64,000 nt of DNA from Eubacteriaceae bacterium UBA1433. Lineage in GTDB: Bacteria; Bacillota; Clostridia; Eubacteriales; UBA1433. Shown here one piece after another: positions 7,989-40,973 of this stretch. The notes under the pieces are model-generated. The model searched no databases and was not told where the DNA came from. It worked only from the letters and a program-made list of their open reading frames with translations. Each line of letters begins with the position of its first letter. Within the stretch, counting starts at the first letter, position 1. The position numbers were made by a program, and so were the translations under genes. The stretch covers positions 8,866 through 72,865 of the forward strand of contig DCTT01000018.1 of the NCBI GenBank assembly GCA_002329295.1, written 5' to 3'.

Positions 7989-10900
7989 TTACGGTTGAAC
8001 TACTTTTACGGTCAAGGTTGCAGTTCCGGTTTTACCCAAAGAGTTGGTAACGGAATATATAACGGAATATGTGCCAGGTTGATCGACATTTACAGCGGAA
8101 GAATTAATGCTTACGTTGCCGAAAGGAATATTGCCATCGGTTCCGTCCGTTACCGAATAGATAAATGTAGTAAAATCAGGTAACGGACCGCCCTTATTTA
8201 CGGTGGTAGAAGTAGGATTCAATACAATCACAGGAACGGTAATCACCGTTGTTTTCACGGTAACGTTAACCGAAGTGGAAAACGCTGAGCCATGCGGGTC
8301 GGTATAGGTAACGGTAATGACGGCGTTACCGCCTTTTTTGCCCTTGACAGTGACATTGTTGCCGGAAATGGAGACAGAAGCCACGTTGTTGTTGCTTGTG
8401 CCGGCAGAAAGATTTGTTAAACCTGATACCTGACCTCCGATAGCATTGGTGCCCTGAACAGTAAAGGTGACGGTGTCGTTTTGATTAACGGTGACATCAT
8501 TGGGCGCGGAACCACCGTAGTACAAATCAATGGCAGCCACAGAGCTGGCATTATGAATCGGGCAGTTTTCTGCCTCGCCCTCGGCAGGGAAATAGACAAC
8601 ATCCTGCTCATTTGCCGGTACAAAAGTGGGGTTCAGCGCCTTTACGCCTGCAGGGAATCGTGAGTCAGGTTTCACAATAACGACTTTTTTGGTGACCAAA
8701 TCAGGGGGGCAATATTGCGTTGCCGTTTTGCCGGAAACGTTGCAAAGAACCAGTTCCTGGTGAAAGTCATCCGGTTCGCTTGGCACGGTACCTGCAATAA
8801 ACATTTCAGTGTATACCCTTGAGCCGCGAGGGTCTCTTGAAGAAAGTTCGGTAGGTAATTTGCCGGATACGTTGTCAACGGCTGCTGTTACGATATTATC
8901 GGGACGAGCAGGAAAACTGCCGGAAGAAAGACCTTTTGCGGAATGGATTTCGCGCATATTCACTTCCCACATATAAGCGGGACCGGGCTTGCTGCCGCCA
9001 AAAATACCGATATTGAGTGTGTAGGTTTGACCGTTTGCGATTACCTTATTTTCATCATATCCATACCAAACAGCACCGGTGTAATAGGGGGTATAGCCAC
9101 AGAAATATGCGTGGCGCCGTTCGTCGGTGGTTCCTGTTTTGCCTGCTACGGGAATGCCGGAAATGCTGATTGATGTTGTGCCGCCGCGTACAACCATTTG
9201 CAATACGTCAGTAATCAAATAGGATGTAGCCGGCGAGAAAACCTGCGTTTTTTCTGCTTTGTTTTCAAAGAGTAAATTTCCTTCGCGGTCATAGACGGCA
9301 GTATATAAAAGCGGGTCGGTTCTAATGCCTTGATTTGGGAAGGTGGTAAAAGCCGCAGCCATGACCAAAGGCGTTTGACCACGGGTGTATCCTCCTAAGG
9401 ACAATGCCGCTGCGCCATAATCGGATTCTTCCAATTCTAAGCCCAGTTTAAGCGCATAGGACGAAGAGGTTTCAACACCTACCAGATACCAGGCTTGAGC
9501 GGCAACTAAGTTCAGAGATTTGGCCAGCCCGTTGCGCACGGTTGTCATCCCTGATTGTCCGCCGCCGGAGTTGGTAGGTTTCCAGCCCCCTGCATTGATG
9601 CGCACATCATCGAAAGTAGTTGCCAGTGTCAGTACGCCGGTATCAAGACCCGGACCATATACGGTCAGCGGTTTGGTGGAAGAACCGACCTGAAATTTGC
9701 GTGTGGCGCGATTGAGAGAAAGGCTTGCTGTTTTTTCTCGTCCGCCGATCAGGCCGGCAACATATCCTGTCTGATTATCAATGACCACCATGGCGCATTG
9801 CGGGATATAATTGACCGTTTCACCGGTGGCAGCGGATTTTGCTGCGCTAGCAGCACGCGCTGTTGAGCTCTGAGAAGGAAAGAGTCTGCTGTTAGAAGCA
9901 TTTTTTTCTAAGATGCTTTGAATTTGCGGATCCAAGGTAGAATGAATCACCAATCCGCCGTTAAGCAATGTATCTTGAGCCGATTCCTGCGTGTAACCAT
10001 ATTTGTTGACCATGTCTTTTAACAGTTGTTCGTAAAGCGCATCGGTGAAATATGAATATACGGTACTGGACGCGCTCTCAGGCCTAAGTCCTACATTGCC
10101 GGAGTCGATTTGCTGGATGGCAATATCATATTCGGCTTTTACAATATATTTTAATTCGAGCATTTTATTTAAAACGAGCTTGGCTCGCTCGGCATTTTTG
10201 GGGTTGAGCGGATAATATTTGTTGCCGGCTTCATCTGTTGCGGAAACAATATAGCTGACATTGTCTTCGGTGTTGGTTTCCAGAACAAAAGGCAAATATA
10301 TGCTTGGAGCCTGAGGCATGGCAGCCAATACGGCTGATTGTGCCAAGGTAAGCTCAGAACAAGGTTTGTCGAAAAAAGTATTGGACGCTGACTCAATGCC
10401 CCATGCCCAGGCAAAATTGATTTTATTTAAGTAAGCTGCCAAAATTTGATCTTTGGTCAACATGTTTTCAAGTTCTATGGACAATTTCCATTCCATAACT
10501 TTTCGTTGAATCCTTTTGACATCGCTCAAATGGGTGCCCTTGATTAGTTGTTGGGTAATGGTGCTTCCGCCCGGACCGGAGAGAGAGCGTTTTTTTACTA
10601 TATTCAAAACAGCCCTGGTAATTCCTTTCAAGTCAATGCCTTGATGGGTATAAAAACGCTCGTCTTCAATTGCAATGAATGCAAACTGCACTTGTTCGGG
10701 GATTTGGTCAATGCCAACGGCTTTGCGCTTTTCTTTTCCCTGGAGTTCCTGATAAAAATGACCGTCTTTATCAACGATGATGGAGGATTCAATGTATTTA
10801 AGATTTTCTAAATCGATATCGGGCGCTGTGGCAATCCAATAAAAACCGAAAAAGGAAAGAATGGTGCCGCCAAGCAAAATCAAAGCGAAACCAGCTACTG

Positions 10901-15618: not shown

Positions 15619-16794
15619 TTAACCTTGGCGAATATCAAGCAATTTTTGTTTCAGTTCGGTTTCGATACGAACCAGTTCGCCTTCGGCACTCTTGCGCTTG
15701 GCACGTCCTTCATTTTGTATTTTTACAACTTCATCCAATGTAGTAATCAGCATTTGATTTGTAGCGGTCAGCGTTTCAATATCGATAATGCCACGCTCAG
15801 ATTCTCTGGCCGCTTCAATGGTGCCGGTTTTTAATGTTTCTGCATTTTTGCGCAACAATTCGTTGGTCATATCAGTAACTTCACGTTGGGCTTTGATGGC
15901 CTCTTGCGAATGAGCGAGACCCAATGCCAGTACCATTTGGCTTTTCCAAAGCGGAATGGTGTTTACCAGAGTAGACTGGATTTTTTCGGTCATCAAAGTA
16001 TCGTTGTTTTGAATCAGACGAATTTGCGGTGCCATTTGAATGGAAACGGCACGAGTAAGCTGCAGGTCATGAAGTTTCTTTTCGAAACGATCATAGAGTG
16101 CAGCCAGATCATTGGCGACCTGTGAATCTTCGGCAAGGCCGGAGCGTTTGGCTTTTTCAATCGCTTCGGGCAATTTTGTTTTGCGCAGTTCTTCCAGGCG
16201 TTTTTTGCCGGCAAGAATATACATGGATAATTCTTTAAAATGAATCAAATTGGCTTTGTACATTTCATCGAGCATCGCAATGTCTTTTAGCAACTGTATT
16301 TGATGACCTTCCAAAGTATTGCTGATCTTTTCTACGTTTACTTCAGCTTTATCGTAGCTTGCTTTCAGTGCGGCAATTTTTTTGGCACCCTTTTTGAAAA
16401 ATCCGAAAAAGCCCTTGCTTTCTTGGTTGGCCGAAAATCCTCTGAGTTCAACTACCAGCTCTGAGAGCATATCGCCCACTTCGCCTAAATCTTTTGTACG
16501 AATGCTTTCCAAAGCCGCTTCCGAGAAATCGGCGATTTTTTGTTGAGCGGCCGCACCATATTGTAGAATAGCGGATTGGTTATGAATCTCAATTTTTTTT
16601 GAAAAAGCTTCTACGGCTTGCAACTCTTCCGGCGTAAGGCTCTCTGCGTTAACGCTTGCCAAAGGGTCTTCTTTTTCTTCGTTTTTTATTTCGGCAAGCG
16701 CTTGTTCCGCCACATAGGGCTCTAATACCAGTTCAGGAACAAGATCTTCAATTTTTTGTTCTGCGACAGGCTGTAGTTGTTGATTGTTTTCCAT
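15619..16794 (-). CDS. telA: Toxic anion resistance protein TelA/YaaN family
   Basis: 391 aa, all-helical TelA-like sequence. Adjacent to an XpaC-like gene, as with B. subtilis yaaN-xpaC. Confidence 0.8.
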   Translation of the reverse strand: MENNQQLQPVAEQKIEDLVPELVLEPYVAEQALAEIKNEEKEDPLASVNAESLTPEELQAVEAFSKKIEIHNQSAILQYGAAAQQKIADFSEAALESIRTKDLGEVGDMLSELVVELRGFSANQESKGFFGFFKKGAKKIAALKASYDKAEVNVEKISNTLEGHQIQLLKDIAMLDEMYKANLIHFKELSMYILAGKKRLEELRKTKLPEAIEKAKRSGLAEDSQVANDLAALYDRFEKKLHDLQLTRAVSIQMAPQIRLIQNNDTLMTEKIQSTLVNTIPLWKSQMVLALGLAHSQEAIKAQREVTDMTNELLRKNAETLKTGTIEAARESERGIIDIETLTATNQMLITTLDEVVKIQNEGRAKRKSAEGELVRIETELKQKLLDIRQG

Positions 16795-16809
16795 AAATTA
16801 CCTCCGAAT

Positions 16810-17517
16810 TTATTGTTTTAAAGTTATTTGATCAGGGTCTGTTTCAAAATCGGCATTTTGCAGCAGACCGTCTTTAGAAAGCATGTTTTCAAGTACAGTA
16901 ATATCAGTCGATATATCCAGTTTCTCGTGAGAGAACATGTTATCCAGTTGTTTTTTAAAAGCTTGCGAAATATCGTCCATGGCTGTGCGGATTTTGGACA
17001 TGCCTAAAGAAACATTTTCGCTTTCAATGTTTTGAAGCTCTAACTTATGATAAGAATTGAGCAGTTTGATGGTGGTTGGCAAATAATAATTCATAAATTT
17101 TCGCAGCTGTGGTTGTTTGGAGGGTTGCGCTTGCAAAGCTTTTAGTATCTTGACGGCAGTATCTTCAATCTCAACGATTTTATTGGATAAGTCTTCATTG
17201 ACAATTTTTTCATTGGCTTGTTGGAGTTCAGTGATGTATCCGGTTCCCTGCACAATAAGAGCGTCTGCATCGGCATCGCCCGTTTTGGTCATCGGCACAT
17301 TGCGATAAATAACAGTTTCTTTTTTCGGTGCAAATTTTTCCGCAATAATATAAACAATGATTGAAGCAACAATGGCAATGACAAAATCTTTGATGCGGTA
17401 CATCGGCAATAAAATTGTACACAAAACCCATGTAGCCGCCACTGCATAAAAGGGAATGGCTGAACGGGTAATAAATTTGATTTCTTCTTTTTCGAGACCC
17501 AAGGTTTTGTTGTCCAT
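16810..17517 (-). CDS. xpaC: XpaC-like protein (5-bromo-4-chloroindolyl phosphate hydrolysis protein family)
   Basis: 235 aa. Two N-terminal TM helices plus a helical cytoplasmic domain, paired with telA. Confidence 0.6.
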   Translation of the reverse strand: MDNKTLGLEKEEIKFITRSAIPFYAVAATWVLCTILLPMYRIKDFVIAIVASIIVYIIAEKFAPKKETVIYRNVPMTKTGDADADALIVQGTGYITELQQANEKIVNEDLSNKIVEIEDTAVKILKALQAQPSKQPQLRKFMNYYLPTTIKLLNSYHKLELQNIESENVSLGMSKIRTAMDDISQAFKKQLDNMFSHEKLDISTDITVLENMLSKDGLLQNADFETDPDQITLKQ

Positions 17518-17952
17518 TTGCGTTTTCCTTTATAACAAAATCAAGTCGGCAAAAAAGGTCTTTACGGTTTTACAAAATAAGAATGCCGATTATAATCAGT
17601 CTAATTATATACGATTTAGAGAAAAATACAAAGAGATTCCATGAATATCACATTTTTTTACAATGAGATTTTTGACTGCATTTTATTGAGAAAATATTGT
17701 CAAAGCACATCGGACAACATTTTTAACATAGGTGTATGGGCATAAGGTTTTTATTCGGAGGATCAAAGGGATTGCTTTATTTTTTATTGCTGTTCTTGAC
17801 AATATTGCAAATTACCTATTCATTTTTGAAAACCTGAAACAATAAATGGTATTATTATGATAAATATAAAAAATTATTATAGTAAAAGCCAATTCATTTC
17901 TTAATATTTATATGGCAAAAGTATATCGTTTTGGATGAGAAGAAAGAATATC

Positions 17953-17981
17953 TTGACAAATCCAAAAAGAAGCGATATAAT
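17953..17981 (+). promoter_or_regulatory. Consensus sigma-A type promoter of the ABC exporter operon
   Basis: TTGACA (17953-17958), 17-nt spacer, TATAAT (17976-17981). Confidence 0.7.
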
Positions 17982-17990
17982 TCAAACAAA

Positions 17991-18006
17991 GTTAGCGTGC
18001 TCTAAC
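17991..18006. promoter_or_regulatory. Palindromic operator candidate GTTAG-N6-CTAAC
   Basis: gttagcgtgctctaac, about +3 to +18 relative to the predicted transcription start site. Confidence 0.55.
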
Positions 18007-18024
18007 TATATTTTTTACACAAGG

Positions 18025-18040
18025 GTTAGAATAATCTAAC
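18025..18040. promoter_or_regulatory. Palindromic operator candidate GTTAG-N6-CTAAC
   Basis: gttagaataatctaac, 37 nt upstream of the ABC gene start. Confidence 0.55.
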
Positions 18041-18076
18041 TGCCTGCGGAATATTACCATTGCATATTGGGAGTTT

Positions 18077-19822
18077 ATGGCAACGATGATCAACAGACGA
18101 TTGATTGGAACAATTAAAGAAAGCAAACCGTATATTGTTAAGAACGTGGCTTTTCAATGGGTCTCGTTGATGGCGAATATCGTTATGATGGGAGCCGTTG
18201 CCCAATTGCTCCAAAGTCTGTATCAGGGTAATGTTACTAACAAACAAACGGGTGTAACTGCGATGATGATGACAGCGGCTATCTTGGTGCGGTTTTTCTG
18301 CGCTATGGGCGCCAACCGGATGGGTTTTTTGTCTTCTAAAACGGTAAAGGCAACTCTGCGTGAGCGAATTTATCGGAAATTGCTACGACTCGGTTCTTCT
18401 TATTCCCAACAAGTCAACACTTCCGAGGTAGTGCAGATTGCAGTAGAAGGTGTAGAACAGTTAGAAACCTATTTTGGTCAATATTTGCCTCAGTTTTTTT
18501 ACGCCATCCTTGCTCCACTGACTCTGTTCATGGTTCTTGCATGCATCAGTTTTCCTGTTGCATTGGTGCTGTTGGTCTGTGTACCGCTTATTCCTGTTGC
18601 CATTATCAGTATTCAGCGATGGGCAAAGAAGCTGCTTTCTAAATACTGGGGAGAATATACGACTCTCGGTGATACTTTTTTGGAAAATCTGCAGGGATTG
18701 TGCACTACAAAGATTTATCAGGCGGACGCATTTAAGCATCAAGAAATGAACGAACAGTCGGAGCGGTTCCGTAAAATTACGATGAAAGTGCTGACCATGC
18801 AGCTCAACTCTATTACCGTCATGGATCTTATTGCCTATGGCGGTGCAGCCTTGGGGGTGATTCTGGCAGCTATTCAGTTTCGCCTTGGAAATGTGAATTT
18901 GGCCGGCTGCATTCTGATTATTTTGTTGGCAGCAGACTTTTTTCTTCCTATGCGTCTTCTGGGCAGTTTTTTCCATATATCCATGAACGGTATGGCTGCA
19001 TCGGATAAAATTTTCCACCTGCTGGATTTGCCGGAAAAAGAAGAAAAAACAAAAGTGATTTCTGCCAACTGCACTATTGAATGTTGTGACCTCTGTTTTT
19101 CCTATGAAGAAGATAGAGAAATTCTTGCAGGTATTAATATGACTTTTCCCGAGGGCAGTTTTACTGCCATTGTGGGAGAAAGCGGTTGTGGAAAGTCCAC
19201 TTTTGCATCCATTCTCATGGGTCGAAATCAAGGATATTTTGGAAGCCTCACCGTGGGCGGTGTTGAACTGAATCAAATCAGCGAAGACAGCCTCATGAAA
19301 CATTTTACTTACATTGGACACCAGAGCTATCTGTTTAAAGGCACTGTTCGGGAGAATTTGTTGATGGCTAAACCTGATGCCGAAGAAGGGACTCTTTGGG
19401 AGGTGTTAGAACAGGTGCATCTGGCAGATTTTCTTCGAGAAGAAAAAGGTTTGGATACCATGTTGAATGAAAAAGCATCCAATTTCTCCGGCGGTCAATG
19501 TCAGCGATTGGCTTTGGCACGTGCATTGCTTCATGATAGCGCTGTTTATATTTTTGATGAAGCCACTTCTAATATTGATGTAGAAAGCGAAACCAGTATT
19601 ATGGAAGAAATTAAAAATCTTGCGAAAACCAAAACCGTTATTTTGATATCTCACCGATTGGCCAATGTGGTCAGCGCTGACCAAATCTATGTGCTAAGTA
19701 ATGGGCGTATTGCGGGTTTCGGTAACCATCAAGAACTTTTGAAGCAAAATAACGATTACGCAAAGCTTTGGAATGTTCAGCAGAAGCTGGAATCTTACAA
19801 TCGTGGGGGTGCAGGCGTATGA
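18077..19822 (+). CDS. ABC transporter permease/ATP-binding protein (CydD-like half transporter)
   Basis: 581 aa. Six-TM exporter domain, Walker A GESGCGKST, signature FSGGQCQRLALAR, Walker B IFDEATSNID. Confidence 0.85.
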   Translation: MATMINRRLIGTIKESKPYIVKNVAFQWVSLMANIVMMGAVAQLLQSLYQGNVTNKQTGVTAMMMTAAILVRFFCAMGANRMGFLSSKTVKATLRERIYRKLLRLGSSYSQQVNTSEVVQIAVEGVEQLETYFGQYLPQFFYAILAPLTLFMVLACISFPVALVLLVCVPLIPVAIISIQRWAKKLLSKYWGEYTTLGDTFLENLQGLCTTKIYQADAFKHQEMNEQSERFRKITMKVLTMQLNSITVMDLIAYGGAALGVILAAIQFRLGNVNLAGCILIILLAADFFLPMRLLGSFFHISMNGMAASDKIFHLLDLPEKEEKTKVISANCTIECCDLCFSYEEDREILAGINMTFPEGSFTAIVGESGCGKSTFASILMGRNQGYFGSLTVGGVELNQISEDSLMKHFTYIGHQSYLFKGTVRENLLMAKPDAEEGTLWEVLEQVHLADFLREEKGLDTMLNEKASNFSGGQCQRLALARALLHDSAVYIFDEATSNIDVESETSIMEEIKNLAKTKTVILISHRLANVVSADQIYVLSNGRIAGFGNHQELLKQNNDYAKLWNVQQKLESYNRGGAGV

Positions 19823-21459
19823 AGCGAAACGGCTTTCAAATTATGACACGATTAACAGGTCTTGTTCGTCCCTTGATCGGCTATATGGCGTTAGCCGTTG
19901 TAATGGGTTTGGTTGGCCATTTATGCGCCAGTTTTATTACTATTTTCGGCGGTTATGCAGCGCTTGGAATTATAGGATATAAGATACCCCTGTCCTTAAG
20001 ATTTATTTTTATTTGCTTGATTGTTTTTGCATTGCTCCGGGGATTTCTTCGATATGCCGAACAGTTTTGTAATCATCTTATTGCCTTCAAGCTTCTTGCA
20101 TTGATTCGCGACAAAATCTTCGGCGCGTTAAGAAGGCTATGTCCGGCGAAACTGGATGGCAAAGATAAAGGAGACTTGATTGCAGTCATCACTTCCGATA
20201 TTGAGCTTTTGGAGGTTTTTTACGCCCACACCATTTCCCCTGTCTGCATTGCTCTTCTTTTTTCCGGTGTGATGGTTGCGTTTATCGGATCCTATCATAT
20301 TGCGTTGGCTGTGTTAGCGCTGATTGCGTATTTAACCGTCGGTATAGCCGTTCCGATCGTGACTTCTAAAATCAGCGGAGATGATGGCATGCGCTTTCGT
20401 TGCAAATCCGGACAGTTATCTGCCTTCGTGCTGGATAGTCTTCGCGGATTGCAAGAAATTATTCAGTACAGACAGGGAGAAAATCGTGTGGCGGAAATGA
20501 ATGACCGTACCAATGCTCTTTCTAAAGACGAAGAGAAGATGAAACGAACTGCAGGTCGCAACAGCGCTGTTACCGATACGGTAATTTTGATATTCGATTT
20601 TGTCATGTTGTTTATGTCTGCGGTACTTGTGGGATTTGAAGGAGCTTTGATTGTCACGTTAGCATTGATGAGTTCTTTTGGTCCTGTAGTTGCTTTGGCG
20701 GCGTTGGGAAGCACGTTGCAAAATACCTTTGCTGCAGGAAACAGGGTGCTGGACATTTTGGATGAAAATCCTGTGGTGGAAGAAATAAGCGGGAAACCTA
20801 AGGTAGATTTTAGAGGTGCATCTGCAAAAAATGTCATTTTTTCTTATAGAGAGGAAATAGTTTTAGATAATTTCTCGGTGGAAATTCCGGAAAATAAGAT
20901 TATTGGTATTACCGGTCGTTCCGGTTCCGGCAAATCCACGCTGTTGAAGCTTTTTATGCGATTTTGGCAGGTACAGAGCGGTGAAATCGCTATCAGCAAA
21001 ATCAGTGTAAATCATATCAATACTGCAAATCTTCGTGATATGGAAAGTTTCGTCACTCAAGAAACACACTTGTTTCATGATTCCATTCGCAACAATTTGC
21101 GCATTGCAAAACAAGATGCAACGGAGGAAGAAATTATTGCAGCTTGCAAAAAAGCCTCTGTTCACGATTTTATTCTTTCTTTGCCCAAAGGCTATGATGC
21201 GGAGGTCGGTGAGCTTGGCGATACCTTATCAGGCGGTGAGCGACAGCGTCTGGGGTTGGCCAGGGCGTTTCTCCATAATGCGCCTTTTCTGTTATTGGAT
21301 GAGCCTACTTCCAATTTGGATAGTTTGAATGAAGCGGTGATTTTGAGGTCGTTGAAAGAAGAAAGTCAGGGAAAAACTGTGGTTTTGGTGTCTCATCGAA
21401 AGTCTACTATGGGCATTGCAGACATAGCCCATTCCGTAGAACACGGAAGAATCAGTTGA
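19819..21459 (+). CDS. ABC transporter permease/ATP-binding protein (CydC-like half transporter)
   Basis: Start ATG 19819 forms an ATGA overlap with the upstream stop. Walker A GRSGSGKST, signature LSGGERQRLGLAR, Walker B LLLDEPTSNLD. Confidence 0.85.
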   Translation: MKRNGFQIMTRLTGLVRPLIGYMALAVVMGLVGHLCASFITIFGGYAALGIIGYKIPLSLRFIFICLIVFALLRGFLRYAEQFCNHLIAFKLLALIRDKIFGALRRLCPAKLDGKDKGDLIAVITSDIELLEVFYAHTISPVCIALLFSGVMVAFIGSYHIALAVLALIAYLTVGIAVPIVTSKISGDDGMRFRCKSGQLSAFVLDSLRGLQEIIQYRQGENRVAEMNDRTNALSKDEEKMKRTAGRNSAVTDTVILIFDFVMLFMSAVLVGFEGALIVTLALMSSFGPVVALAALGSTLQNTFAAGNRVLDILDENPVVEEISGKPKVDFRGASAKNVIFSYREEIVLDNFSVEIPENKIIGITGRSGSGKSTLLKLFMRFWQVQSGEIAISKISVNHINTANLRDMESFVTQETHLFHDSIRNNLRIAKQDATEEEIIAACKKASVHDFILSLPKGYDAEVGELGDTLSGGERQRLGLARAFLHNAPFLLLDEPTSNLDSLNEAVILRSLKEESQGKTVVLVSHRKSTMGIADIAHSVEHGRIS

Positions 21460-26577: not shown

Positions 26578-26949
26578 TCAGTTTTTTAGCTGTTTCATAT
26601 AATTTTGAATTGCCGCAAAAGTCGCCTCGCTGATTTCGTGTTCCACTTTGCAAGCATCTTCATCGGCCGTTTCGTCATCAACGCCTAAAGCGATGAAAAA
26701 ATCAGTCAGTACGTTATGTCGCTCATAGATGCGTTTGGCGATGTCCATTCCCGCAGAAGTCAACGTAATTAATCCGTCGGTATCCATCGTAATATAGCCG
26801 TTTTCGCGAAGCCGTTTGGTGGCATAGCTGACACTGGGTTTTGTAACGCCTAATTCTGCGGCAATATCAACAGAACGTACATAGCCGTGTCGTTTTTTTA
26901 AAACAAGCATTGCTTCCAGATAATCTTCTGATGATTTTAATATTCTCAT
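26578..26949 (-). CDS. DtxR/MntR family metal-dependent transcriptional repressor (short form, no SH3-like domain)
   Basis: 123 aa. MRILKSSEDYLEAM..GYVRSVDIAAELGVTKPSVS.ATKRL..GY helix-turn-helix plus a metal-binding helical domain. Divergent from feoA. Confidence 0.85.
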   Translation of the reverse strand: MRILKSSEDYLEAMLVLKKRHGYVRSVDIAAELGVTKPSVSYATKRLRENGYITMDTDGLITLTSAGMDIAKRIYERHNVLTDFFIALGVDDETADEDACKVEHEISEATFAAIQNYMKQLKN

Positions 26950-27022: not shown

Positions 27023-27051
27023 TTGACATATTGAGTTAGAGGCGTTAAACT
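27023..27051 (+). promoter_or_regulatory. feo operon promoter
   Basis: TTGACA (27023-27028), 17-nt spacer, TAAACT (27046-27051). Confidence 0.55.
27035..27050. promoter_or_regulatory. Palindromic operator candidate (imperfect) GTTAG-N6-TTAAAC
   Basis: gttagaggcgttaaac overlaps the promoter spacer and -10. Confidence 0.4.
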
Positions 27052-27057
27052 ATTCGA

Positions 27058-27077
27058 TAGTTAGACAAAACTAACTA
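27058..27077. promoter_or_regulatory. Palindromic operator candidate TAGTTAG-N6-CTAACTA
   Basis: tagttagacaaaactaacta with perfect 7-bp arms, at the predicted transcript start. Confidence 0.6.
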
Positions 27078-27116: not shown

Positions 27117-27326
27117 ATGGTATTGTCAAAGGCGGAAATCGGAAAGCCTGTCTGCATTCGGGAAATTCAAGGTGAAAATGAGATGCGAAAACACTTGGGT
27201 GAGTTGGGTTTGGTGGTAGGAGAAGAGGTTAGCATCGTATTGAAATGCGCAGGGAATTTTATTCTGCAAGTAAAAGACAGCCGCTTGGCATTGGATGCCG
27301 GAATGGTAAACAGAATTATTATTTAG
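27117..27326 (+). CDS. feoA: Ferrous iron transport protein A (FeoA)
   Basis: FeoA-size SH3-like sequence (M)VLSKAEIGKPVCIREI..LGELGLVVGEEVSIV. ATG 27117 is preferred over the TTG 27087 track start, but the choice is uncertain. Confidence 0.8.
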   Translation: MVLSKAEIGKPVCIREIQGENEMRKHLGELGLVVGEEVSIVLKCAGNFILQVKDSRLALDAGMVNRIII

Positions 27327-27342
27327 TGGGAGGAGACGAAAA

Positions 27343-27564
27343 ATGAAAACATTACGGGACGCTAAAATCGGCGAAATTGTCGTTGTGGCAAAATTACACG
27401 GTGAAGGAGCGACGAAACGGCGCATTATGGATATGGGCATTACAAAGGGCACCAATATTTTTGTTCGCAAATCCGCGCCGCTGGGTGACCCATTGGAGAT
27501 CAATGTGCGCGGCTATGAGCTTTCTTTGCGAAAGGCTGATGCGGAAATGATTGAAATCAAATAA
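27343..27564 (+). CDS. feoA: Ferrous iron transport protein A (FeoA), second copy
   Basis: 73 aa. L.DAKIGEIVVV..RRIMDMGITKGT. GGAGGAG ribosome-binding site. Confidence 0.88.
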   Translation: MKTLRDAKIGEIVVVAKLHGEGATKRRIMDMGITKGTNIFVRKSAPLGDPLEINVRGYELSLRKADAEMIEIK

Positions 27565-27578
27565 TTTTTTTAAGCAAA

Positions 27579-27598
27579 AAGTTAGACAAGGCTAACTA
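27579..27598. promoter_or_regulatory. Palindromic operator candidate AGTTAG-N6-CTAACT between feoA2 and feoB
   Basis: aagttagacaaggctaacta. With its flank it is near-identical to the 27058-27083 module. Confidence 0.55.
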
Positions 27599-27612: not shown

Positions 27613-29775
27613 ATGAAAATCAACATTGCCCTTGCAGGGAATCCGAACAGTGGAAAAACCACGCTTTTCAATCGATTGACCGGTTCAAATCAATATGTAG
27701 GTAACTGGCCAGGCGTGACGGTTGAAAAAAAAGAAGGAAGAGTCAAAGACAATAAAAACATCATTATCCAGGATTTGCCGGGAATTTATTCGCTGTCGCC
27801 TTATTCACCGGAAGAGGCCATTGCGAGAAAATATTTATTGGAAGAGAAACCGGACGCTATTATCAATGTTGTAGATGCTACCAATATGGAACGAAATCTG
27901 TATTTGACCACTCAGCTGGCGGAATTAGGCATACCGGTGATAGTTGCCTTAAATATGATGGATGTTGTAAGGAAAAATAAAGATGAAATAAATTTAAAAA
28001 AGATGAGCAGAGCCCTAGGTTGCGAAGTGGTGGAAATCAGTGCTTTGAAAGGAGAGGGTATTGAGCGGTTGATGGACAAAGCCGTTGCAGCAGCGATGAA
28101 CAAGGAGAGAAGAGAGCCGCTGCATGTGTTTACAGGCAGCGTGGAACACGCAATCGCTCATATAGAAGAATCGATTTTGGATAAGGTAGACCACGGGGCG
28201 ATGCGATGGTATGCGATAAAAATTTTTGAAAGAGATGAGCAGACTTTACAAAAATTAAATTTAGGAGACGATCTCCTAGAACACCTGGAAAAACATATTA
28301 CAGACTGTGAAAGCGAGATGGACGACGATGCGCAAAGTATTATTACCACTCAACGTTACGCATATATCAAGAATATCGCTGAAGAGGCGGTGAAGAAAAA
28401 AGCGCCGAAATTCAGTCTTTCCGCTTCCGATAAAATCGATCGAATTGTAACCAATCGTATTTTGGCGCTGCCGATTTTTGCTGCTGTCATGTTTGTGGTT
28501 TATTATATATCCATCGGCTCCGTAGGCGCTTGGGTTACTGATTGGACAAATGAGACATTGTTTTCAGAAATCATAGCCGGCAATCTGCGCACCTGGATGG
28601 AAGCTGTCGGCATGCAGGCATGGTTCGTCGGTTTGGTTGTGGACGGGATAGTGGGCGGGGTGGGCGCTGTGTTGGGTTTTGTGCCGCAAATGCTGATCTT
28701 GTTTCTCATGCTTTCGATTTTGGAGGATATCGGTTATATGGCGCGTGTTGCCTTTATTATGGACCGCATCTTCCGCAAATTCGGACTTTCGGGCAAAAGC
28801 TTTATTCCGATGTTGATTGGATCGGGGTGCAGTGTGCCCGGTATCATGGCTTGCAGAACCATTGAAAACGAAAGAGATCGAAGAATGACAATTATGACCA
28901 CAAGTTTTGTTCCCTGCGGAGCAAAAATGCCCATTATTGCACTGTTTGCCGGCGCTTTGTTTGGCGGCAGCGGCTTCGTGGCTGTGTCCGCCTATTTTAT
29001 CGGAGTGGCGGCCGTCTTGGTTTCGGGTGTTATTTTAAAGAAAACGAAGGCTTTTTCAGGAAAACCGGCTCCGTTTGTAATGGAGTTGCCGCCTTACCAT
29101 GCTCCTGCTTCAAGCAACGTACTTCATGCCACTTGGGAGAGAGGCTGGAGCTTTATCAAACGTGCAGGAACCATTATTTTAGCCTCTGCCGTTGTGTTGT
29201 GGTTTTTGCAAAGCTTCGGTATAGAGTCAGGAACACTGACAATGGTAGAAGACAACAATACAAGTTTACTTGCTTCTATCGGCAACGCAGTGGCGATACT
29301 CTTTAAACCTTTGGGCTTTGGCGACTGGAAAGCAGCAGTTGCCACCTTTACAGGGCTGATAGCAAAGGAAAATGTGGTGGGCACCTTCGGTGTGTTATAT
29401 GGTATGGCGGAAGTAGCCGAAAACGGTGCAGAAATCTGGAGTGCCTTAGCGGCAGATTATACAGCGCTTACTGCTTACAGTTTTATGATCTTCAATTTGC
29501 TTTGCGCACCTTGTTTTGCTGCGATTGGAGCCATTAGAAGAGAAATGAACAGCGCAAAATGGACGTGGTTATCTATCGGATATCTTACAATTTTTGCTTA
29601 TGCGATTTCGTTTTTGGTGTATCAATTCGGCCAGTTTTTCTTAAACAAAGTTTGGGGTGTGGGAACCGTAGCAGCATTGATAGTTCTTGTCGGAATGCTG
29701 TGGCTTTTGTTTAGAAAAAATAAATATGATACGGAAAGATTCACTGCTGCAGTACTGGCAAATCAGGTGAAATAA
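27613..29775 (+). CDS. feoB: Ferrous iron transporter FeoB
   Basis: 720 aa. G-domain GNPNSGKTTLFN, DLPG, and a polytopic membrane domain. Confidence 0.96.
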   Translation: MKINIALAGNPNSGKTTLFNRLTGSNQYVGNWPGVTVEKKEGRVKDNKNIIIQDLPGIYSLSPYSPEEAIARKYLLEEKPDAIINVVDATNMERNLYLTTQLAELGIPVIVALNMMDVVRKNKDEINLKKMSRALGCEVVEISALKGEGIERLMDKAVAAAMNKERREPLHVFTGSVEHAIAHIEESILDKVDHGAMRWYAIKIFERDEQTLQKLNLGDDLLEHLEKHITDCESEMDDDAQSIITTQRYAYIKNIAEEAVKKKAPKFSLSASDKIDRIVTNRILALPIFAAVMFVVYYISIGSVGAWVTDWTNETLFSEIIAGNLRTWMEAVGMQAWFVGLVVDGIVGGVGAVLGFVPQMLILFLMLSILEDIGYMARVAFIMDRIFRKFGLSGKSFIPMLIGSGCSVPGIMACRTIENERDRRMTIMTTSFVPCGAKMPIIALFAGALFGGSGFVAVSAYFIGVAAVLVSGVILKKTKAFSGKPAPFVMELPPYHAPASSNVLHATWERGWSFIKRAGTIILASAVVLWFLQSFGIESGTLTMVEDNNTSLLASIGNAVAILFKPLGFGDWKAAVATFTGLIAKENVVGTFGVLYGMAEVAENGAEIWSALAADYTALTAYSFMIFNLLCAPCFAAIGAIRREMNSAKWTWLSIGYLTIFAYAISFLVYQFGQFFLNKVWGVGTVAALIVLVGMLWLLFRKNKYDTERFTAAVLANQVK

Positions 29776-29976
29776 ATGACTTTGCAGACAGTGGTTCAAA
29801 ATATTCCCACGTTGTTAGGCAGCGTTGTTGTCGCCGCAATCGTTATTGCCGTTATTGTAACGCATATTAAAAAACGCAAGAATGGTCAAGGTGGCTGCAA
29901 CGGCTGTAGCAGCTGCGTTTATCATCATTGCAAAAAAAATACAGATAACACAAAAAGAAAAAGTTCATATTTGTAG
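29776..29976 (+). CDS. FeoB-associated Cys-rich membrane protein
   Basis: 66 aa. One TM helix then GGCNGCSSC..HHC. The start abuts the feoB stop. Confidence 0.8.
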   Translation: MTLQTVVQNIPTLLGSVVVAAIVIAVIVTHIKKRKNGQGGCNGCSSCVYHHCKKNTDNTKRKSSYL

Positions 29977-39665: not shown

Positions 39666-40973
39666 ATGAGTTTTAAACAAGAGTATGAAAGCAAAAAAAT
39701 GACATTTGAAGAAGCTGTCAAATTAGTGAAAGACGGCGACAGAATATTTATTAACGGCGGCGGGTCTCTTTCCGTGCCGCTTGCAGAAGCGCTGTATGAA
39801 CGAAAAGACGAATTGAATGAAGTGTATATTCTAAGCTCTTTGATGAGCAAAAATCTGAGAATATACGGCATGGATTGTGAAGGCAAGTTTCATATTACAT
39901 CGTCCTTTTTGGGCAGTACGGACAGAGCAGCGATGAAACAAGGCAGAACCATTGACAACATGAGTTATCAATTGCGAAACAATCTTTTTGTTTTGAGAGA
40001 TGTTTTTCAAACAAACGTGTGTTTTATTCTTGCACGACCTATGGATGATGAAGGTTATTTTAACTTAAGCCTTTCTCCCAGTGATTTTGATTCATTGGTG
40101 CATGTAGCCGATACGGTGATTGTGCATGTAAATGATCAATTGCCGCATATTTGTACGGATGAAAACAAAATACATATTTCGAAAGTGCATGCCGTTTGTG
40201 AACAGAGTGAACCGCCTGTAACATTGCCATCCGGTGAACCTTCTGACCTTGACAAGCAAGTGGCTTCGCATATTGTTGAGCGCATTCCCAATGGTGCATG
40301 CTTGCAAATCGGAATCGGCGGTATTGCCAATGCAGTGGGCTTTAGTTTGATTAACCATAAAGATTTGGGAATCTACACGGAAATGTATACAGAAAGCATG
40401 TATTATCTGCAGAAAAATGGCGCCGTGAATAACAGCAAAAAACCTATCCACACAGGGGTATCGGTTTTAGGCTTTGCGTTAGGCAGCCAGGATATGTATG
40501 ATTTTATTCATGAAAATCCGAAAGTGTTTTCCAGGCCGTTAGGATACACCAACGATCCCTATCTTGTTGCAAAGCATGATAACTTCGTTTCGGTAAACGC
40601 TTGTCTCAGTGTGGATATTACCGGACAAGTGGCATCGGAAGCATTAGGCAAAACACAATTTTCCGGAACCGGAGGACAAGTTGATTTTGTGCGTGGTGCG
40701 CAGATGTCTAAGGGCGGAAAGTCTTTTATCGCCACTCATTCGGTAAACGTAAAAAAAGACGGAACGAGAAATTCGAAAATTGTTATGAGCCATCCTGAAG
40801 GAGGCATTATCACCACAGGCAGAACCGATGTGCAATATATTGTTACAGAATACGGTGTTGCTGATTTGCAAAACAAGTCGAGAATGCAGAGGGCAAAAGC
40901 GCTTATTGCCATTGCACATCCCGACTACAGAGACGAGTTGACATTTCAAGCAAAAAAAGAAGGATATCTGTAA
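39666..40973 (+). CDS. Acetyl-CoA hydrolase/transferase family protein (4-hydroxybutyrate/butyryl-CoA:acetate CoA-transferase-like)
   Basis: 435 aa. SGTGGQVDFVRGA motif. Size and layout fit the family I CoA-transferase Cat2/AbfT group. Confidence 0.8.
   Translation: MSFKQEYESKKMTFEEAVKLVKDGDRIFINGGGSLSVPLAEALYERKDELNEVYILSSLMSKNLRIYGMDCEGKFHITSSFLGSTDRAAMKQGRTIDNMSYQLRNNLFVLRDVFQTNVCFILARPMDDEGYFNLSLSPSDFDSLVHVADTVIVHVNDQLPHICTDENKIHISKVHAVCEQSEPPVTLPSGEPSDLDKQVASHIVERIPNGACLQIGIGGIANAVGFSLINHKDLGIYTEMYTESMYYLQKNGAVNNSKKPIHTGVSVLGFALGSQDMYDFIHENPKVFSRPLGYTNDPYLVAKHDNFVSVNACLSVDITGQVASEALGKTQFSGTGGQVDFVRGAQMSKGGKSFIATHSVNVKKDGTRNSKIVMSHPEGGIITTGRTDVQYIVTEYGVADLQNKSRMQRAKALIAIAHPDYRDELTFQAKKEGYL

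Follow-up and report, generated by a model that had tools for sequence, protein, structure and literature searches.

We analysed 64,000 nucleotides of contig DCTT01000018.1 from Eubacteriaceae bacterium UBA1433 (hereafter, the window), in which two copies of the palindrome GTTAG-N6-CTAAC follow the promoter of a two-gene operon for a CydDC-like ATP-binding cassette (ABC) transporter, and further copies lie at the feoA-feoA-feoB genes for ferrous iron uptake. The palindromes are probably operators of an iron-sensing repressor encoded beside feo, and the CydDC-type pair, which most likely moves haem, would be induced together with feo when iron is short. This picture is drawn from the arrangement of sites and genes in the window and in related genomes, and from published expression data on Faecalibacterium.

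The promoter of the transporter operon matches the sigma-70 consensus at 12/12 positions in a consensus scan (TTGACA at 17953-17958, TATAAT at 17976-17981), and transcription is predicted to start near 17987-17989. The two palindromes behind it, O1 and O2, are both exact, just as an earlier reading made from the letters of this DNA (the sequence-only reading) had described them. O1 begins 10 nt past the -10 element and spans approximately +3 to +18 of the predicted transcript. O2 lies 34 bp from O1, and 45 nt separate its end from the ATG at 18086. The features of the operon are:

17953-17981, plus strand: sigma-70-type promoter (TTGACA, 17 nt, TATAAT)
17991-18006, no strand assigned: predicted operator O1, GTTAGCGTGCTCTAAC, an exact GTTAG-N6-CTAAC site whose position is kept in orthologues
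18007-18016, plus strand: T-rich tract tatatttttt directly 3' of O1, recurring in modules of 34-35 bp
18025-18040, no strand assigned: predicted operator O2, GTTAGAATAATCTAAC, an exact GTTAG-N6-CTAAC site
18086-19822, plus strand: CydD-like ABC half-transporter of 578 aa with a transmembrane and a nucleotide-binding domain (TMD-NBD; Pfam ABC_membrane and ABC_tran)
19819-21459, plus strand: CydC-like ABC half-transporter of 546 aa (ABC_membrane and ABC_tran; TIGR02868)

Exact GTTAG-N6-CTAAC sites number four in the window (17991, 18025, 27060, and 27581) versus 0.03 expected from 100 dinucleotide shuffles, and 0/100 shuffles gave four. The sequence-only reading had counted five, but its fifth (27035-27050) carries two mismatches. 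It had also placed every site in the promoter regions of feo and the exporter; this holds for 17991, 18025, and 27060, but 27581 falls in the gap between feoA2 and feoB. The sole other site with at most one mismatch, at 40538, is inside a 435-aa open reading frame (ORF) and is probably a chance match. There is no wider motif family in the window, where two-mismatch sites number 10 versus 15 expected.

At the feo locus O1 begins 9 nt past the -10 element and so shares the geometry of O1 in the transporter operon. The two-mismatch site at 27035 overlaps the spacer and the -10 element of the feo promoter, so that its right half is merged with the -10 sequence TAAACT. The same degenerate form, GTTAG-N6-TAAAC, is found at 9328-9343 of a Faecalibacterium contig (L165; loci other than the window carry L numbers), and because it is conserved in both places the site at 27035 is probably functional. 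The exact site at 27581 lies within the 48-nt gap between feoA2 and feoB and ends 16 nt ahead of the feoB ATG. This position is kept in many feo loci, e.g., L081, L082, L084, L089, L091, L097, L108, L110, L112, L116, and L141. An internal site ahead of feoB could be the mark of an internal promoter or of a roadblock. The features of the feo locus are:

26578-26949, minus strand: DtxR/MntR-family metalloregulator of 123 aa without an SH3 domain (PF01325 and PF02742 above cut-offs)
27023-27051, plus strand: feo promoter (TTGACA, 17 nt, TAAACT), matching 10/12 consensus positions
27035-27050, no strand assigned: degenerate site GTTAGAGGCGTTAAAC with two mismatches, overlapping the promoter spacer and -10 element
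27060-27075, no strand assigned: predicted operator feo O1, GTTAGACAAAACTAAC, an exact site
27117-27564, plus strand: feoA1 (ATG at 27117; mechanical ORF from 27087) and feoA2 (27343-27564), both with Pfam FeoA
27581-27596, no strand assigned: predicted internal operator GTTAGACAAGGCTAAC in the feoA2-feoB gap, an exact site
27613-29976, plus strand: feoB and a gene for a FeoB-associated protein (Pfam FeoB_N, Gate, FeoB_C, FeoB_associated)

Orthologues of the transporter were collected at 80 loci, one genome per species, with flanks of 6-10 kb. Apart from two Atopobiaceae (L015 and L026), loci L001-L040 are from Clostridia, with a transporter identity of 57-75%; they include Oscillospiraceae, Christensenellales, Lachnospiraceae, and an Erysipelotrichaceae metagenome-assembled genome (MAG). 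Loci L041-L080 are from Atopobiaceae (transporter identity ~55%). The nearest named genomes by transporter are Oscillospiraceae MAGs at 75% identity. The 40 Clostridia loci together with the window (529 kb) hold 60 exact and 25 one-mismatch sites. A site is found within 1 kb upstream of the transporter in 32/40 of these loci and within 200 bp in 24/40, and the site density in the upstream 200 bp is 86 times that in the rest of the same loci. Orthologous exporters thus carry the same sites, as the sequence-only reading had suggested checking. That reading had also considered that the motif might be a frequent genome-wide repeat. Over ~1.5 Mb of related loci it instead occurs only in leaders of genes for iron and haem functions and in the intergenic region between the regulator and feoA.

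The layout upstream of the orthologues is kept as well as the sites themselves. A TTGACA/-10 pair comes first, then O1, then a second site, then a ribosome-binding site. The TTGACA/-10 pair is equally far from the first site in most orthologous loci, where O1 begins a few to ~11 nt past the -10 element (typically 8-10) and the second site follows 19-68 bp further on. The consensus of 178 unique sites is rGTTAG-N6-CTAACy, with half-sites that are essentially invariant (sites were picked at no more than one mismatch, which inflates the core values), six spacer positions that are almost free of information, and a purine/pyrimidine pair at the position flanking the half-sites. Such fixed half-sites around an unconstrained spacer are what a dimeric DNA-binding protein, rather than a base-paired RNA stem, would leave in an alignment.

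Two small genes accompany the transporter pair in other genomes. A YgbA_NO gene (PF11756) directly follows the pair in most orthologous loci (55 of them, Atopobiaceae included; L031 10224-10556), and no such gene follows it in the window past 21459. The other gene, whose product is a ~115-aa membrane protein containing conserved His residues, is tied to the transporter in nine loci, upstream in L023 (5647-5994), L025, L029, L030, L032, L033, and L037, and downstream in L003 and L014. In Gemmiger/Subdoligranulum it lies between the sites and the transporter. The only Pfam hint for this protein is a sub-threshold match to COX15-CtaA (E = 0.004).

The candidate for the DNA-binding protein is encoded divergently from feoA-feoA-feoB, ~5 kb downstream of the transporter pair. 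It has a winged-helix domain (PF01325, 44.7 bits, cut-off 26) and a metal-binding/dimerisation domain (PF02742, 52.7 bits, cut-off 27). The closest solved structures are MntR of Escherichia coli and MntR of Bacillus subtilis, but both MntR equivalog cut-offs are missed (NF008273, 103.8 versus 153 bits; NF003025, 80.1 versus 138 bits), and the score for NF053665 (DtxR) is 31 versus a cut-off of 290. Judged by these profiles, the regulator is a member of the DtxR/MntR family outside the definitions of both the MntR and the DtxR/IdeR subfamilies. Residues D9, E12, H78, C100, E103, and H104 are invariant in 80 homologues. Aligned to B. subtilis MntR, the regulator keeps Asp8, Glu11, His77, Glu102, and His103 and has Cys100 in place of Glu99. 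A Cys at the position of DtxR Cys102 is a hallmark of DtxR and IdeR. The primary metal site of those proteins is nevertheless present only in part, with C100, E103, and H104 found and Met10 and the SH3 domain missing. Aligned to DtxR, the regulator has Asp (Asp9) at the position of Met10 and Glu at that of Arg13. Iron is likelier than manganese to be the signal, given Cys100 and the predicted regulon of feoAB, flavodoxin, and haem-uptake genes described below.

The motif itself fits a regulator of this kind. Each IdeR monomer reads a CCTAA pentamer, and one IdeR dimer needs TTAGGNNNNCCTAA (PMC8464063). The TTAG-N6-CTAA core of the sites described here has the spacing of that single-dimer site, so the motif is most simply read as a one-dimer box of the DtxR type, which would suit a two-domain regulator without an SH3 domain. 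Searching metagenomes with the regulator yielded 80 loci (65-75% identity). On contigs that include feo, the two are usually transcribed divergently, and exact or one-mismatch sites occur in the regulator-feoA intergenic region in many of these loci and very often also just before feoB. In L005 a 59%-identical regulator sits among six sites and adjoins their targets. DtxR-like paralogues are also found directly upstream of the transporter in L165 (12548-12949, with a 4-nt overlap) and L019 (5603-5950). The Faecalibacterium paralogue in L165 is without three of the metal ligands (Arg9, Leu12, and Leu78 instead), and the one in L019 keeps Asp, Cys, Glu, and His and has lost the two other ligands; such paralogues may sense something besides a free metal ion. 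In our literature search we came across no paper on this regulator clade or on its operator and regulon.

The genes behind the sites elsewhere are of a consistent kind. The motif precedes feoA and feoB in many loci, and it is found upstream of DUF3793-flavodoxin operons in L005, L014, L022, and the Faecalibacterium contig. In Ruminococcus L031 sites lie ahead of an operon that opens with genes for NEAT-domain and Shp haem-binding proteins. Further sites precede a gene for a protein with a flavin mononucleotide (FMN)-binding domain together with S-adenosylmethionine (SAM) methyltransferase genes (L005 and L009), an AraC-type regulator, and in L022 a Trep_Strep membrane protein, which we suspect to be related to energy-coupling factor (ECF) transporters. 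Going by their annotation, the targets outside the transporter leader are classic iron-limitation genes.

Expression data are available for a related arrangement in F. duncaniae A2-165. Contig L165, whose FeoB shares 95% identity with the A2-165 protein, carries in this order DUF3793, feoA, feoA, feoB, the gene for a small protein, that for a DtxR-like regulator, and two ABC genes. Two exact sites precede DUF3793, and a one-mismatch site precedes the regulator-transporter pair. In the first of two RNA sequencing (RNA-seq) comparisons of A2-165 (PMC10781979, supplementary file 2), the log2 fold change was +5.5 for CG447_12735 (hypothetical), +5.2 to +5.9 for feoA1, feoA2, and feoB, +4.5 for 12755, +4.6 for 12760 (a COG1321 regulator), +4.46 for CG447_12765 (cydD, COG4988), and +4.4 for the flavodoxin CG447_01530. 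CG447_12735 occupies the position of the DUF3793 gene in L165. In the second comparison the listed genes of CG447_12735-12765 changed by -4.9 to -5.9 (12765 by -5.5), and in the part of the source available the flavodoxin CG447_01530 changed by +3.7 (PMC10781979). By reverse transcription PCR (RT-PCR), feoB was up by 6 log2 units without added iron and was repressed by 50 μM FeSO4; the study reports co-induction of feo and flavodoxin and names no regulator (PMC10781979). Together with the sites upstream of the orthologues, the joint behaviour of cydD, feo, and flavodoxin genes supports the proposal of the sequence-only reading that the CydDC-like pair would be co-repressed with ferrous iron uptake.

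The transporter genes are two adjacent TMD-NBD genes, as would be expected of the heterodimeric CydD/CydC-type exporter that had been proposed. The best NCBIfam families are TIGR02857 (CydD; 397.1 bits versus a cut-off of 435) for the first subunit and TIGR02868 (CydC; 304.5 bits versus a cut-off of 329.05) for the second. Public gene calls and orthologues start the CydD-like gene at 18086 (MINRRL..., 578 aa), and an ATG at 18077 is probably not the real start. The second gene starts at 19819, with a 4-nt overlap with the stop codon of the first, and not at the TTG at 19768. Both nucleotide-binding domains have a Walker A motif, a signature motif, the D-E of Walker B, and an H-loop, and on these motifs look catalytically complete. 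The same proposal had noted no cydAB nearby, and this too stands. E. coli queries found no CydA or CydB homologue by tblastn (E <= 1e-3) in the window and 165 loci (1.52 Mb), and cydAB lies beside the transporter in 0/80 orthologous loci.

Haem is the best-supported substrate of the pair, as far as conserved residues and gene context can predict one. CydDC of E. coli transports haem, for which CydC contributes the ligand His85 (invariant and essential) and CydD the ligand His312 (PMC10374445). In an alignment of E. coli, the window, and three orthologues both axial His residues are invariant (His86 in the C-like subunit, His297 in the D-like subunit), and the corresponding residues of an unrelated heterodimeric ABC pair from L001 are Asn/Ala and Gln/Gly. 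Arg77 of CydC is kept in the window (Lys in L031), and the changes Tyr311 to Phe and Phe195 to Trp leave both positions aromatic. In four loci, from genomes of the Ruminococcus type, the pair directly follows an operon like that for Shr, Shp, and HtsABC (L019 238-5577, L024 7-6747, L028 281-2935, and L031 2044-6795), in the order NEAT/FIVAR protein, Shp, Peripla_BP_2 binding protein, FecCD permease, ATPase, ABC pair. The full set is present in L019 and L024; L028 begins at the binding protein (contig end), and L031 is partial. Import of haem, or its extraction from the membrane, is reported for CydDC of Enterococcus faecalis (PMC9296619) and of group B Streptococcus (PMC13192879). We favour haem because of the axial His residues, the haem-operon context, these reports on CydDC, and the missing cydAB. 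The sequence-only reading had listed a thiol, haem, or a metallophore; haem is the one of the three with such support, and thiol or metallophore transport, although possible, is ranked below it, thiol export being without specific support. A siderophore importer of the IrtAB/YbtPQ type was also considered and ranked below haem. The 60 solved structures that best match the D-like subunit include CydD but neither IrtAB nor YbtPQ, and siderophore biosynthesis genes were not seen near the loci.

The most probable mechanism is repression by a shared protein. The regulator, loaded with metal (most likely Fe2+), would place one dimer on each rGTTAG-N6-CTAACy site. A dimer on O1, across the transcription start, would occlude RNA polymerase from a promoter that should be intrinsically strong because of its consensus match, and a second dimer on O2, 34 bp on, would add cooperative binding or a roadblock. 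The same regulator would repress feoA-feoA-feoB via three sites, one covering the -10 element, one the transcription start, and one just ahead of feoB. With one repressor on both operons, iron shortage would turn on the transporter and feo together, and the CydDC-type pair, with no evident link to cytochrome bd, would serve haem or iron acquisition under iron starvation. Observed directly are the sites, their conservation ahead of orthologous transporters and of other iron and haem genes, and their place beside the regulator gene; we infer which protein occupies them, the metal it senses, what O1 and O2 each do, and what the pair carries and in which direction.

Several observations weigh against this mechanism. 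The regulator is most closely related to manganese sensors and resembles MntR at five of six ligand positions. Both transporter subunits score under the NCBIfam CydD and CydC cut-offs, and two propionate contacts of CydC are changed in the window and three orthologues (Arg81 to Gln and Arg136 to His). The RNA-seq data come from another genus, in which the transporter lies beside feo with its own regulator paralogue lacking three metal ligands and is preceded only by a one-mismatch site, and many unrelated genes also changed in those comparisons (PMC10781979). The Atopobiaceae orthologues (L015, L026, and L041-L080) have no GTTAG-N6-CTAAC site, other motifs not having been searched for there. 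Clear transporter orthologues and the YgbA-like gene are present in this group (Lancefieldella/Atopobium) at 55-68% identity, which suggests transfer between phyla with changed regulation. Finally, many leaders contain strong hairpin-plus-U-tract structures, which point to an additional RNA-level layer outside the operator model.

In one rival explanation the sites may bind the DtxR/MntR-like protein with manganese as the signal and FeoB acting as a manganese importer, as reported for some FeoB paralogues. The best family and structure matches, to MntR of E. coli and B. subtilis, and the identity of Asp9, Glu12, His78, Glu103, and His104 with MntR ligands speak for this. We nevertheless consider it unlikely, as the sixth ligand is the Cys of DtxR/IdeR and is invariant in the homologues, both MntR cut-offs are missed, flavodoxin and NEAT/Shp haem-uptake genes have iron-sparing and iron-acquisition functions, and FeSO4 represses the orthologous feoB in F. 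duncaniae. A regulator of another family (Fur, Rrf2, or other) might also bind the palindromes, the DtxR-like gene merely adjoining feo. In 38/40 transporter loci there is indeed no DtxR-like gene within 6 kb. The sites, however, recur in the divergent region between the regulator and feoA on many independent contigs, and their half-site and spacing fit the single-dimer box of DtxR/IdeR, which makes this explanation very unlikely. The motif is also unlike the Fur and PerR consensus boxes. Chance, or a dispersed repeat without a regulatory role of the repetitive extragenic palindromic (REP) kind, has only the shortness of the motif in its favour. With the excess over shuffled sequence, no surplus of degenerate copies in the window, and site positions kept across genomes whose transporters are just 57-75% identical, we give this explanation practically no credence.

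Another alternative is that the palindromes act mainly as RNA. An O1 hairpin and its U-tract would then terminate or attenuate transcription in the leader, or stabilise the 5' end as a stem-loop, and the conservation would be one of RNA structure instead of a protein-binding site. A hairpin and U-tract lie between O1 and O2 in many leaders and are often made from O1 itself. A crude finder of such elements called 14/25 transporter leaders on the sense strand and 0/25 on the antisense strand. On the feo-regulator intergenic regions it called 29 versus 23 of 39 on the two strands, too noisy for a control because these regions are long and AT-rich. Several of the hairpins have very high predicted stability (L014, -30 kcal/mol, z = -8.9; L010, z = -8.2; L006, z = -6.1; L027, z = -4.3). 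The stems of L006 and L010 are formed by O1 and the next site, which is O1 in inverted orientation; comparison of these two species shows a single compensatory change (G-C to A-U) and a single wobble change (U.G to C-G). The leader hairpin/U-tract elements are:

L014, 5871-5920
L010, 5939-5980
L006, 5896-5935
L027, 5926-5960
L165, 8267-8343

Against a role chiefly as RNA stand the invariant half-sites and variable spacer, the opposite of stem covariation, together with sites that lie inside promoters and over the -10 element (27035; L005) and the fit of the motif to the DtxR-type half-site and spacing. In the window the O1 hairpin has 5-6 base pairs (-4.2 kcal/mol, z = -0.95) and with the T-tract makes only a weak terminator-like element. 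A terminator scan found no such site in the O1-O2 leader, and a permissive Rfam search of 17500-18300 gave three chance-level matches to eukaryotic families, none on the leader. We hold it to be quite improbable that the palindromes work mainly as RNA; an RNA role is more likely an added layer than a replacement of the operator.

The spacing of the sites gives this added layer a possible form. The distance between neighbouring sites peaks sharply at 34 bp, with 11 unique cases and five more at 33 or 35 bp. Modules of this type are found in the window (17991/18025), L014 (4557/4591), L017, L025, L031 (2018/2052), L034, L035, and L038, and at feo in L084, L097, and L116. Read on the sense strand, modules of 34-35 bp have the T-tract after O1, and the order promoter, O1, T-tract, O2 is found in the same orientation upstream of four kinds of gene (transporter, DUF3793, NEAT operon, and feoA). 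The operators might double as RNA, with O1, alone or paired with its inverted copy, forming the hairpin of a leader terminator ahead of the U-tract. A repressor bound on O2, ~34 bp downstream of O1, would stall RNA polymerase with its active site on the U-tract and make a weak terminator efficient (roadblock-assisted termination). On this view the CydDC-type pair would import haem during iron starvation in strict anaerobes with no cytochrome bd nearby. We regard this extended version as doubtful. If true, one palindrome would yield a two-level iron switch, and the leader architecture is the part of the system that could prove unusual.

The operator model places the window beside known iron regulons. 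The iron boxes of IdeR and DtxR in Actinobacteria (19-bp TTAGGTTAGSCTAACCTAA, or the single-dimer form given above) are bound by proteins of the same family, with PF01325 and PF02742. The likeness extends to the GTTAG/CTAAC pentamers, the TTAG-N6-CTAA spacing, the overlap with promoters and starts of iron-uptake genes, and a Cys-x-x-Glu-His metal motif. In contrast to DtxR and IdeR, the regulator has 123 aa and no SH3 domain, the host belongs to Clostridia, and the boxes are for single dimers rather than for two interleaved dimers. The box also differs from that of IdeR (TTAGG-N4-CCTAA) in that the G/C outside TTAG is conserved and the inner G/C is not, and Gln43 of IdeR appears to be Tyr in the regulator. 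MntR of E. coli and B. subtilis is closest in relationship, two-domain architecture, size, and five of six metal ligands; the differences from it are the missed equivalog cut-offs, the Cys in place of Glu99, and a regulon of iron and haem genes rather than manganese transporters.

A close parallel for the transporter is the sia operon of Streptococcus pyogenes (shr-shp-siaABC-siaDE-siaFGH), which belongs to a regulon for haem and iron acquisition repressed by the DtxR-family protein MtsR and includes siaDE, a "putative ABC transporter" pair (PMC6593403). The gene order in L019, L024, L028, and L031 resembles it, and in L031 operator sites lie upstream of the operon. The likeness to SiaDE is one of gene order. 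Unlike in sia, the pair in the window has a promoter to itself, and the 64 kb contain neither NEAT nor Shp genes. MtsR is a three-domain protein with a different operator. The context, which the sequence-only reading had called unusual for CydDC-like genes, is less so in view of sia, where an exporter-type pair is already under a DtxR-family repressor. With CydDC, the haem exporter for cytochrome bd in E. coli, the pair shares the TMD-NBD heterodimer, the best family match, the axial His residues, and R77 of CydC; it differs in its 27-28% identity, in scores below cut-offs, in R81 to Gln and R136 to His, and in loci without cydAB. To our knowledge, control by an iron repressor is not a described feature of cydDC. 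Heterodimeric ABC siderophore importers of the exporter fold, IrtAB (regulated by IdeR) and YbtPQ (regulated by Fur), are induced by iron starvation; they differ from the present pair on the structural and genomic grounds given above.

The remaining neighbours annotated between ~14 and 36 kb have housekeeping roles (TelA, XpaC-like, RecU, RNase H, and glycolysis genes). Of these, the genes for TelA (toxic anion resistance) and an XpaC-like protein (PF10112) are on the minus strand at 15619-17517, directly upstream of the transporter promoter; they carry no motif and have no evident link to the transporter.

The arrangement is probably that of a DtxR/IdeR-like iron regulon akin to MtsR and sia, a familiar kind of regulation to which gut Clostridia here add a solid new example. 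Among the dominant anaerobes of the gut are Oscillospiraceae, Faecalibacterium, Ruminococcus, and related bacteria, whose metal regulation is largely uncharted, and the palindrome offers a simple searchable marker for an iron-starvation regulon of feoAB, DUF3793-flavodoxin, NEAT/Shp haem uptake, and the CydDC-type pair. The function of CydDC-family transporters is debated, with export of haem described in E. coli and import in enterococci and streptococci. Here such a transporter is placed in a setting of iron and haem acquisition without cytochrome bd, and this setting makes the direction and substrate of the CydDC-type pair testable.

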